Shown: piece by piece, positions 927 to 4,028 of the stretch
Position numbering within the stretch: position 1 is the stretch's first letter
Layout of the letters: the number at the start of each line of letters is the position of its first letter
Origin: Chlamydiia bacterium
GTDB lineage: Bacteria > Chlamydiota > Chlamydiia > Chlamydiales > FEN-1388
Direction: 5' to 3'
NCBI GenBank assembly: GCA_903848235.1
Contig: CAINFV010000146.1
Location: 1 to 46,724, forward strand
Length of the DNA stretch: 46,724 nt
Program-made: the position numbers and the translations under genes
The notes under the pieces: model-generated
Databases searched by the model: none
Told to the model about the DNA's origin: nothing
What the model saw: the letters and a program-made list of their open reading frames with translations, nothing else

Positions 927-1868
927 TCAGTTGATTTTGTGGATAGATACGTAGGCTGTGACTTTTACAGCTGGTGAAAGCTGCCCATAATCGTTGAAAT
1001 ATCCTAGGAGACCGGTCGGAAGTGTGAGAATCTGCAGGTTGACTAAATTCCCACTCGTGAGTGAGCGGACGATATGCTTCGTCCCAGTGCTGAGTGCGGT
1101 ATATGTATAGTTGGCCGGCGTCGGAGGAGATGTCCAAGGAGACCCAAAGATTGGAACGGGAAAGAGCTCATCGCCGACTGCGGCTGGAGCACTGGTTCCG
1201 GAGAAGAAAACCTCCATTGTGGCCGGAGGGCCAGAAAGCGCGGTTGCACCTGGAGGAAATAGGATCTGAACAAAGTAATCTATAGCATAGACGCCATCTA
1301 TGTTGATTGTGAAGGTGTTGGGGGTATCATTAAACGAGACGTTGTTGAAGTCTTCGTTCTCAATTTGAAGAGGGACGATAAATGGGACAGGCGAAATCTG
1401 AACGGCTGTCGCCCCTGTAGGGCCAGGAAGGATGGCGCTTCCAAACGCTGCTATTATTCCTGAGCCATCGGCTCCCGTTGCCCCTGTTGCCCCCGTTGCC
1501 CCTGTAGCCCCTGTTGCCCCCGTTGCCCCTGTTGCCCCAGTCACCCCTGTAGCACCTGTTGCCCCCGTCGCTCCAGTAATCGTTGCCCCAGTAGACCCTA
1601 GAGAACCGGTCGCCCCCATAGGCCCTGTGGCTCCTATGGCTCCGTTAGGCCCCTTAAAACCTTTCCGCCCCTTTTTTCCCCTTTTTCCCTTCTTCCCAGT
1701 TTCTCCCCTGTGCCCCTTTTCCCCTCTCCTCCCAACAGCACGATGCCATTTTGGCACGACGTCCGATTGATCCTTTTCATCGATAAACGGGGGATCTACA
1801 GCTTCTATGTGACACATTGAAGCAATGCAGGTCAGGAACAAAGCTAGTGTCTTGAGTCGGTTCATCAA
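927..1868 (-). CDS. Secreted collagen-like (Gly-X-Y) protein with a C-terminal globular domain (BclA/C1q-TNF-like jelly roll inferred)
   Basis: N-terminal signal peptide [23 protein letters not shown]. About 29 Gly-X-Y triplets follow ([43 protein letters not shown]...(GAT)n...GADGSG). A ~175-aa beta-rich C-terminal domain follows ([16 protein letters not shown]...). Paralog of ORF 3039-4028. Confidence 0.85.
1467..1733 (-). repeat. Coding tandem triplet/9-bp repeat tract (Gly-X-Y, mostly GAT = Gly-Ala-Thr)
   Basis: The plus strand shows reiterated gttgcccc[t/c]gt[t/a]gcccc units. These translate on the minus strand as [19 protein letters not shown]... Confidence 0.9.
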
Positions 1869-1992
1869 TCGACGAGGCTAAAGACCGTGACCTTTAGGTC
1901 ATGGAGGAAGCCTCGCTCCTTAGTTAATTGTTAAAAATGGGAGAGTTTCCCCCTCACAAAATGCCCTTAGGAGTCCAGTTAAACTTGACTCC

Positions 1993-2664
1993 TTACGGAA
2001 TCGTATAAAGTCTCCTCGACCTTGTCTTTTGTGGGTTTTTGTAGACATCCTCCATAAACGCCACCTGTTGAAAACCATACCCATCACCACGCTGAACAAT
2101 TTTGCAATGACGATGCGATATCCCCTGGATTAATCCTTGTGGGGTCTGTATGTTAAAATTGCCCGAGGAACGTACTGCAACACGGCCAACATAGGTTCCA
2201 GCCTTTTTTCCGGTCGGTACAAATGCTTTAGCTATATCACCTGTTTGGAATCCCTTGACTTGCTTTGTGCGCGGCAGATATCCGCGTGGAAACCCGTAGG
2301 CTGTCAGTCGAGTGCGTTGATAACAACCACGTCCTATCGCCTTGATTTTCAATACTGGTATTTGCCAATTGGTAACAGATTCGACATTCCCAACACATAT
2401 TGCATCAAGGGCATGCGTTTTGGGGATGGCCAGTCGCGAACGGTTCCATTTTGTTCTACCACCAGTACCTGTCTCCACTGGCAATCCTGTTTCTTTGAGG
2501 GCGCTGTACAGCGTCAAACGGGTGCTGTTGACTGCCGAGACGTCCTTGAGCGGCATTTTGGTTTTTGCGAGGATACACTGTAAGCGTTCGAGTAACAGCC
2601 TTGCTCGTTTTTCGCTGCATGGCATGAGCGCCTTGCCTTTCTTGTCCAACACAAATACGGCCAT
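1993..2664 (-). pseudogene. IscB-family (OMEGA RNA-guided nuclease) relic. The PLMP/RRXRR N-terminus is fused to the RuvC-III + C-terminal TAM-interaction region. RuvC-I/II, bridge helix and HNH are deleted, but the reading frame is still open.
   Basis: From ATG 2664 the translation is MAVFVLDKKGKALMPCSEKRARLLLER, the hallmark IscB N-terminus. It runs directly into ...ILAKTKMPLKDVSAVNSTR...GLPVETGTGGRTKWNRSRLAIPKTHALDAICVG...KGFQTGDIAKAFVPTGKKAGTYVGRVAVRSSGNFNIQT...GISHRHCKIVQRGDGYGF. This matches the post-HNH half of IscB proteins as I remember them. There is no GIDPG-type RuvC-I motif and no CxxC...HH HNH motif. Length is 223 aa, versus roughly 400-500 aa for intact IscB. Confidence 0.7.
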
Positions 2665-2960
2665 CTCATTTCTCAAAATAATCGCCCTTACGGGCCTTTT
2701 GTTACGCGCCCCTCAAGGGGGCGTCTCCCTTCGACACTGTTGTATATCGGCACGTGTTCTGATCTGTTTCGTGCTTACCCTATTGCTTGTCTACTACCAA
2801 AACTTCGAGAGGTCAGAACTAAGGAAGCATTCTGACGTCGGTCTTTGGCCTACATACAACGTAAGTTGCCTTTCGGCAACTAAAGTCTGGTCAACCAAGG
2901 CTTAAAAGTCTCCTTTCAAGCCTCTCCCTTTAGGGAGGGGTTGTTGACAGTCCCCTCAGA
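2665..2960 (-). ncRNA. Candidate omega-RNA remnant or IS200/IS605-type left end upstream of the IscB relic
   Basis: This ~300-nt non-coding stretch lies immediately 5' of the iscB-like start on the same strand, where omega-RNAs are encoded. It contains several GC-rich stem-loops: 2684-2695 gccc/gggc, 2707-2723 cgcccc/ggggcg, 2865-2880 gttgcc/ggcaac and 2921-2940 cctctccc/gggagggg. I cannot confirm homology to known omega-RNA models. Confidence 0.3.
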
Positions 2961-3001
2961 GTGATGCGATTTTCTGTCTCTTACGAAAAAACTATTGGAC
3001 T

Positions 3002-3032
3002 CGACCAAAGAGAAAGGTTCCCTCTTTGGTCG
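3002..3032 (-). terminator. Probable terminator of collagen-like gene 2
   Basis: cgaccaaagag (3002-3012) and ctctttggtcg (3022-3032) form a perfect 11-bp stem, 7 nt after the stop at 3039. On the minus strand a UUUUUU run follows about 10 nt after the stem. Confidence 0.5.
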
Positions 3033-3038
3033 TGAACG

Positions 3039-4028
3039 CTAGTTAATTTTGTTAATGGCTACATAGGCTACGATCTTCTCGGGAGCATTTGTGTCATATG
3101 CATCCAAATACGTTGGAAGGGGACCTGTCGGACCTGTTCCCAACTGCATCACCGGAAGTTGCGTAATCTGTAATCCAACTGTCGTATTTGGAATAAGATG
3201 TCGAACGATATGCCGTGTCCCAGAGCTTACTGCCGTATACGGAAAAGACAGATATATGGGAGGAGGGGAAGTCCAGGGAGAGTCGAAGATGGGAGTGGGC
3301 ACAAGTTCATCATCAACAACGTCGGGCAGTGAGCCAGTAGGGCCAGTAGTGCCAAAGACAATTTCCATAGTTACTGGAGGCCCAAAAATCGTAGGCCCTG
3401 TTGGTCCAGTAACGCCTGTGTTGTGAAGAACCTGCAGGAAGTAATCGATGGCATATTCCCCCTCAAGGTTAATCGTAAACTGTTTGCTACCGTTATCAAA
3501 GGTCATATTGTGTGGAGTAGGTTCGTCCGTGGATACAATGGGTACGGTGTAGGGCAGGCTCATAGTGGTTGGAAAGGCCCTTCCGCCCACTAAGGATGCA
3601 CTTCCAAATGCAGCGACAAAATCTAATCCAGTCGCTCCCGTCGTTCCTGTAGTTCCTGTAGTTCCTGTAGTTCCTGACATCCCCGTCGCCCCCGTCGCCC
3701 CTGTCGGCCCAGTCGCTCCCGTCGCCCCTGTCGCCCCTATCGCTCCCGTCGCCCCTGTTGCTCCCGTCGCCCCTGTCAGCCCTTCAATTCCACGATGCCC
3801 TCTTCTCCCTTGGCGGCCACGGAGACCCTGGGGCCCTGTGTCGCCTACTTGGCCACGGTGTCCTCTGTGTCCATCGTGTCCTTTGGGCCCTCTGTGAAGA
3901 ATACCCTTTTGAACCGTGTTTTTTTGATTGGAAGAACCATTTTGTAGAAATGGTGGGTCGACAGCCTCAGCTTTGCATACAGCAACACTGCAGATGAGAC
4001 AAAAAGCAAAGGTTCTTAGAGAATTCAT
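3039..4028 (-). CDS. Secreted collagen-like (Gly-X-Y) protein, paralog of 927-1868, with extra GPTG insertions in the globular domain
   Basis: Signal peptide [22 protein letters not shown] followed by the same VDPPF motif as the paralog. About 30 Gly-X-Y triplets follow ([46 protein letters not shown]...[18 protein letters not shown]). The C-terminal domain is colinear with the paralog ([17 protein letters not shown]..., [35 protein letters not shown]). Confidence 0.85.
3621..3890 (-). repeat. Coding Gly-X-Y tandem repeat tract
   Basis: The plus strand shows reiterated gtcgc[c/t]cc[c/t]gt and gtagttcct units. These translate on the minus strand as [49 protein letters not shown]. Confidence 0.9.

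Follow-up and report, generated by a model that had tools for sequence, protein, structure and literature searches.

A probable recently decayed, non-autonomous IscB element with a stand-alone omega-RNA in a Chlamydiia bacterium

The window analysed here, a 46,724 nt stretch of DNA from a Chlamydiia bacterium (GenBank assembly GCA_903848235.1, contig CAINFV010000146.1), carries a short open reading frame resembling the two extremities of an IscB protein. The locus raises the question of whether this mini-IscB is a domesticated RNA-binding protein or the remnant of a recently decayed OMEGA element, and an earlier note made from the sequence alone had allowed for either.

The mini-IscB reading frame and its internal deletion

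The open reading frame as listed covers positions 1993–2676 on the minus strand and would encode 227 amino acids from a TTG start. The start typical of the family is an ATG at 2664, which gives the N-terminus MAVFVLD, and from this codon the mini-iscB frame (1993–2664, minus strand) comprises 223 amino acids and a stop, in the order PLMP domain, RuvC-III, TAM-interacting domain (TID) and a non-native tail. Profile searches agree with the earlier proposal of an internally deleted IscB in which PLMP and RuvC-III/TID are joined in an open frame. The Pfam RRXRR profile matched the 227-residue frame at residues 7–37 only, equivalent to profile positions 1–31 of 174, while the NCBIfam guided_IscB model (NF040563) aligned in two pieces, at profile positions 1–25 and 249–314 of 314. 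The guided_IscB score of 86.2 bits falls below the curated cut-off of 175, and mini-IscB does not score as a whole IscB protein.

The PLMP domain is present, and this stretch is 96% identical to that of C4, a paralog in the same genome. Mini-IscB does not have a complete split RuvC (I, II and III) with its bridge helix; only the RuvC-III motif K-T-H-A-L-D-A (2401–2421, minus strand) is left, with its catalytic His and Asp, and K82, H84, D87 and A88 occupy invariant columns of our family alignment (A1). No HNH domain was matched in the mini-protein by the Pfam search, whereas the paralogs carry one at about residues 196–247. Residues from about 100 to 200 align with the family and include the TAM-interacting β-barrel (2080–2262, minus strand; residues about 135–195). 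Among alignment columns conserved at 90% or above, mini-IscB keeps 72 of 74, and Y198F is its sole private change at a highly conserved site.

The deletion was mapped against C4, which is 88–92% identical to the window copy at the DNA level by blastn. The alignment fell into two blocks with a six-base overlap, and the 687 bp of C4 that separate them have no counterpart in the window copy. Both breakpoints carry the hexamer CGAACG, which lies at 2585–2590 (minus strand) in the window and bears out the earlier placement of a microhomology junction near 2575–2590. The 687 bp correspond to 229 in-frame codons, and the frame is still open because this length is divisible by three. In C4 numbering the lost segment spans about residues 26–254 and takes with it RRXRR profile positions 26–174 together with HNH; in C4 itself Pfam places RRXRR at residues 1–180 and HNH at 199–243. 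Its translation holds the DPGSK motif of RuvC-I, an arginine-rich helix, the RuvC-II region and the CxxC...DH...N core of HNH. RuvC-I, the bridge helix, RuvC-II and HNH had all been noted as missing, and all are, including the catalytic Asp of RuvC-I and Glu of RuvC-II; only the size of the loss, put at roughly 200 amino acids, was too low.

The C-terminal tail has a different origin from the rest of the frame. Alignment of the 3' regions and blastn against C4 identified a duplicate of approximately 70 nt of the 3' end of another omega-RNA subtype (type A HEARO) at 1957–2050 on the minus strand, and this duplicate encodes the last 18 or so amino acids and the stop codon. A 23-nt palindromic insert (1970–1992) that is unique in the genome splits the duplicate, whose codons vary between copies. 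Both the window copy and C4 have the type A HEARO 3' duplicate followed by the type A terminator module behind the IscB body, an arrangement that suggests a chimeric origin of this subtype by recombination with an element that had no ORF. A further copy, C45, was considered as one that keeps IscB C-terminal codons and was rejected, because the stretch in common is the type A HEARO 3' end, which follows the ORF as a duplicate in the window copy and in C4.

In known IscB proteins the RuvC fold is built from all three of its segments, and the bridge helix holds the guide-target duplex. Judged against this architecture, the mini-IscB product would be unable to cleave DNA or to bind it in an RNA-guided manner. 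AlphaFold2, run with a 47-sequence alignment, modelled the mini-protein with a mean pLDDT of 67.8 and a pTM of 0.37; values above 90 were confined to residues about 135–195, which form the TID barrel, and the PLMP domain remained below 50. A Foldseek search of the PDB returned nothing below an E value of 0.01, with IsrB and IscB chains ranked top, and for the TID the nearest structures, all weak matches, were those of IscB/IsrB and the PAM-interacting barrels of Cas9. Searching the sequences of solved structures gave one marginal match, to TbaIscB (E 6.5e-4). At best, the product would amount to an orphan TAM-binding barrel accompanied by some remnants of helices.

No decay is seen among the codons that remain. 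Over the 197 codons shared with C4, the Nei-Gojobori dN/dS is 0.15, with a dS of 0.25, a ratio which indicates that most of the divergence between the two copies arose while both encoded working proteins. Taken with the 72 conserved columns, the low dN/dS argues that the deletion is young when measured against the divergence between copies. The same ratio and the open frame would fit a recent deletion and continued selection on the mini-protein alike.

The omega-RNA and the boundaries of the element

The region upstream of mini-iscB had been put forward as the site of an omega-RNA, and a covariance-model search confirmed this. Rfam family HEARO (RF02033) is the RNA today called the IscB omega-RNA (Meers et al., 10.1101/2023.03.14.532601; PMC13565253), and cmscan matched it at 2719–2948 on the minus strand with 93.8 bits (gathering score 83, E 7e-20). 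The match is full length (model positions 1–211 of 211), lies on the same strand as iscB and ends 54 nt before its ATG. The 306-nt stretch upstream of the frame also folds better than shuffled sequences (z = -4.8). Beyond the model, folding identified two GC hairpins at 2680–2718 (minus strand), including GGCCCGTAAGGGC at 2696–2684, and a GGCCC-GTAA-GGGC hairpin of this 3' extension is kept in all six copies compared. RF02033 is described as omitting downstream structural elements of the RNA (Meers et al., 10.1101/2023.03.14.532601), and the extension is probably part of the omega-RNA.

The guide segment is flanking DNA outside the element, directly 5' of HEARO position 1 (2949–2964, minus strand), its length of 16 nt being assumed by analogy with published IscB systems. 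This flank ends in ..GGGGACT and adjoins the TAM at the empty site described below. Across the whole genome, the 12-nt and 16–20-nt guide sequences were found at the mini-iscB locus only, and matches to 14 nt of the guide with up to two mismatches were in no case followed by ATGAA, indicating that there is no second target. A scan for promoters of the omega-RNA found no sigma-70-like sequence, a result that carries no information in a chlamydia. Between the guide and the collagen-like gene upstream of it, at 3004–3030, there is a perfectly palindromic hairpin that resembles a terminator and has a T-run; no such hairpin is present in the short stretch between the corresponding genes of a same-genus genome (G001).

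The whole element spans 1866–2948 on the minus strand (1083 bp, 5'-GTCAAC ... CGATTG-3'). When the copies in the genome were aligned, similarity began exactly at HEARO position 1 (GTCAAC, window position 2948) with unrelated flanks upstream, and on the distal side every copy showed TAAGGAG, a compound hairpin, a few bases and ATGAA, after which similarity ended. In G001, the corresponding site is empty and reads ..ACTCTGAGGGGATCT|ATGAACCGA, where the filled site in the window reads ..ACTCTGAGGGGACT|GTCAAC..1083 bp..CGATTG|ATGAACCGA. This comparison fixes the bounds of the element at 2948 and 1866 and demonstrates insertion at N|ATGAA with no target duplication. The element is flanked by paralogous genes for secreted collagen-like (G-x-y repeat) proteins (927–1868 and 3039–4028), and the pair is kept in tandem in G001, where the two genes lie 46 nt apart at the empty site. 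The target/TAM ATGAA occupies 1861–1865 (minus strand), and its ATG (1865–1863) is where translation of the downstream collagen-like gene starts.

Two hairpin features mark the distal part of the element. A terminator-like hairpin followed by a T-run (1933–1953, minus strand) is kept in the ORF-less copies and in C4, and the end distal to the omega-RNA (1866–1922, minus strand) consists of the invariant TAAGGAG followed by the compound hairpin, is retained in all seven copies and shows compensatory changes between element types. In TnpA terms this is the left end of the transposon. The upstream region had previously been read as an IS200/605 left end, but by published convention the omega-RNA side is the right end (Meers et al., 10.1101/2023.03.14.532601). 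In its ends, its short target, the lack of target duplication and the existence of an empty site, the element has the properties of a non-autonomous ISC / IS200-IS605 transposon.

The same organisation is known from described elements. ISC1-1_MA and ISC2-1_MS have the target N|ATGA and a 5'-GTCA terminus (Kapitonov et al. 2016, PMC4810608), and the TAM of GstIscB is TTCAT, the reverse complement of ATGAA (Meers et al., 10.1101/2023.03.14.532601). Like the window element, these have a 5'-GTCA... terminus, insert 5' of ATGA(A) and leave the target unduplicated; HEARO lies directly upstream of iscB, the guide is drawn from the flank, the distal end bears a hairpin and there is no internal tnpA. 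The window element differs from them in the loss of 229 nuclease codons, in an ORF tail that lies in a fragment of another HEARO subtype, and in its chlamydial host. It also resembles stand-alone omega-RNAs (Altae-Tran et al. 2021, as summarised in PMC10691335) and PATE-like protein-less derivatives (also Meers et al.) in keeping guide RNA and ends after nuclease function was lost, but with about 670 bp of coding sequence still open it represents an intermediate state. IsrB, a natural HNH-less relative, and the TldRs, which are nuclease-dead TnpB proteins, are, like mini-IscB, relatives of transposon RNA-guided nucleases that have been shortened or inactivated. However, IsrB has a complete RuvC and bridge helix and forms a conserved clade, whereas mini-IscB has neither of these domains and no orthologs, and TldRs keep an RNA-/DNA-binding core and are conserved vertically, neither of which holds for mini-IscB.

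No damage is apparent in the scaffold, the guide or either end, and the locus therefore amounts in functional terms to a stand-alone omega-RNA element. We consider it very likely that it is a recently decayed, catalytically dead and non-autonomous IscB (ISC/OMEGA, IS200/IS605) element, so that the first of the two readings offered earlier is the one we favour. A Y1 transposase acting in trans would have inserted it 5' of ATGAA, directly before the ATG of the collagen-like gene, after the host species and its sequenced same-genus relative had diverged. A subsequent deletion through microhomology, most likely by replication slippage between the two CGAACG hexamers, would have removed 687 bp and left an in-frame stump, whose product has presumably lost catalysis and most of the surface for the guide-target duplex. 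Mobilisation by Y1 and protection by an intact IscB would then be possible only with both supplied in trans; action of stand-alone omega-RNAs in trans is documented (PMC10691335). The locus is no new system but a new, well-resolved member of the known OMEGA/ISC elements, and the mini-protein is most likely a dead remnant. For this internally deleted copy, the empty site in the sister species reveals both the inserted sequence and its exact position.

Other copies, deleted homologs and alternative readings

Among named organisms, the AspRS encoded in the window is closest to that of MAGs labelled 'Chlamydiales bacterium' and of some labelled Verrucomicrobia, at 56–61% identity. The host genome (2.35 Mb in 284 contigs, 93% complete) contains six HEARO matches. 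A search for further copies and shared ends, as the earlier note had advised, recovered a full-length IscB (C268), the C4 paralog and ends common to seven copies. C268 is the sole complete IscB frame in the genome (443 amino acids); it shares 43% identity with the window subtype, and its HEARO is of another subtype. In C4 the TID is disrupted by a +1 frameshift, which must be real since it recurs in diverged database sequences (P0081, P0251 and P0242–P0245). The four remaining copies (C168, C45, C96 and C192) have HEARO without an ORF, the RNA being followed immediately by the terminator-like hairpin and then the distal end. The assembly of this genome contains no intact IscB of the window subtype. 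The set is a natural snapshot of OMEGA decay, with intact (C268), frameshifted (C4), in-frame deleted (window) and four guide-RNA-only copies side by side. The Y1 transposase (PF01797) was detected by profile search as three fragments of 26–44 residues, all at contig ends (C20:1411-1542, C66:1-78 and C67:25727-25804), which suggests unassembled multi-copy IS200/IS605 tnpA.

Internally deleted IscB proteins are also frequent elsewhere in the databases. Among the best 120 database matches of 122–391 amino acids, at least ten have an intact PLMP and internal deletions with other breakpoints (examples are P0004, P0007, P0009, P0041, P0091, P0118 and P0120), one of which, P0118, is recorded on three contigs and has independently joined PLMP to the post-HNH region. 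Homologs as short as mini-IscB are in part fragments cut off at contig ends and in part products of independent deletions. Because the breakpoints differ among the deleted proteins, mini-IscB is best seen as a one-off deletion product and not as a member of a family. The 90%-identity clusters that hold the window protein and C4-type copies also include P0252, an intact 463-residue IscB of the window subtype from ENA assemblies that falls in the cluster of C4-type copies, P0001, with a different deletion of about 77 residues, and P0249, with another frameshift. No ortholog of mini-IscB was found among 40 relatives.

Could the deletion have been created by the assembly of a fragmented metagenome? 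The genome is in many contigs, has 4.85% contamination, and its IscB/HEARO copies break contigs. Against this, the identical 223-residue protein occurs on five NCBI and ENA contigs, which also points to a stable allele in the population sampled; a repeat of 6 bp is far below the length able to mislead a k-mer assembler; and the flanks of the locus are unique and syntenic with G001. We regard an artefact as scarcely credible. The proposal that mini-IscB has been domesticated, as a factor that binds the TAM or the omega-RNA and regulates the downstream gene or hinders homing by analogy with TldRs, would account for the open frame, the near-complete set of conserved columns, the dN/dS of 0.15, the intact omega-RNA and the similar join in P0118. 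It is nevertheless very improbable in our judgement. The site is empty in the same-genus relative and an ortholog was found in none of 40 relatives, so that the vertical conservation at a fixed locus seen with TldRs is not found here, and the look-alikes of similar size, with their differing breakpoints, form no clade. Loss of the bridge helix, together with two thirds of the split RuvC, prevents an RNA-guided DNA-binding core from forming, and neither the low pTM nor the poorly modelled PLMP points to a stable fold. The C-terminal tail derives from a duplicated omega-RNA fragment and varies between copies, and a deletion leaves the frame open one time in three. For these reasons the idea of a domesticated RNA-binding remnant did not hold up.

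A different possibility is that the element still works as a selfish unit, its omega-RNA being used by an IscB of the same subtype and its ends by Y1, both in trans. Its omega-RNA, guide, TAM and ends are intact, ENA assemblies include an intact same-subtype IscB (P0252), Y1 fragments at three contig ends are what would be expected of an unassembled repeat, and trans use of stand-alone omega-RNAs has precedent (PMC10691335). However, the only intact IscB that was assembled, C268, is 43% identical and belongs with another HEARO subtype, the same-subtype C4 is frameshifted in a manner that recurs in other assemblies, and the copies are 12% diverged and hence not recent transposition products. 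We therefore think continued activity rather unlikely, and favour the decayed element described above.

The earlier note was aware of no report of OMEGA/IscB elements in Chlamydiae. Our literature search found no paper on IscB in chlamydiae, the only related statement being that Chlamydiae are poor in TnpB (PMC10691335), but the elements themselves are fairly common there. IscB proteins above the curated cut-off were present in 29 of 401 sampled genomes of the phylum and were concentrated in two families (15/69 and 13/90 genomes); none was found in one family of 30 genomes, whose listed members are small (1.0–1.2 Mb). The MAG of a Parachlamydiales bacterium in GenBank has at least four full IscB copies in addition to broken ones. 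Cas9-ancestor elements are accordingly widespread in environmental chlamydiae. The closest relatives of the window subtype outside the host genome are proteobacterial (60–73% identical), which suggests horizontal spread.

Position of the elements relative to start codons

In nearly all copies, the ATGAA at the distal end of the element is the start codon of a co-oriented gene. Within the host genome this applies to six or seven of seven copies (window, C168, C45, C96, C192, C268 and C4), and the downstream genes include those for the collagen-like protein in the window, a MerR-type protein and an HtpX-like protein, with infC ambiguous. In other chlamydial genomes (loci L024, L025, L110, L111 and L112) five of six copies have the same position, one of them before dnaN, and another copy lies inside a methyltransferase ORF. 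By a rough count, start-like sites make up only approximately 8–25% of the ATGAA sites at which insertion would be tolerated.

In the window, the native Shine-Dalgarno-like GAGGGGA has been moved 1083 nt from the start codon. Three diverged element types fold to one compound hairpin (window 1866–1922, L007 1020–1115 and L024 2850–2945) with compensatory changes in the stems (CGAGGCT/AGCCTCG, CGACGC/GCGTCG and CAGCGC/GCGCTG). Each compound hairpin has an invariant AAGG(G)AG at its 5' foot, and the AUG of the host gene follows 6–7 nt after its 3' foot, so that the motif and the hairpin could, on this pattern, act as a split Shine-Dalgarno sequence. Chlamydial IscB/HEARO elements would then not be scattered at random but might land or survive almost only 5' of co-oriented ATGAA starts, with AAGGAG, brought by the hairpin to 6–7 nt from the AUG, replacing the displaced ribosome-binding site. 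We put this forward tentatively and consider it doubtful; if it were true, the mini-IscB element would be the 5' leader of a collagen-like surface-protein gene. The start-codon position is the one aspect of the locus that might be worth an experiment.

Two further groups of sequences share termini with the HEARO elements. A second, commoner repeat family has their 32-nt terminus with a different continuation (C107, C133, C141, C179, C30, C50 and C80, several at contig ends). TnpB-type (IS605B) elements are known to share ends with ISC elements (Kapitonov et al., PMC4810608), and this family may be such a TnpB-type partner. In addition, mini-elements of approximately 45 nt consist of GTCAAC...CCCTCCC-TAAA-GGGAGGG, a hairpin end, and about 15 nt (C102:26287-26323, C37:8646-8677 and C96:20074-20107); each lies directly before an ATGAA start codon, in one case that of pheS.
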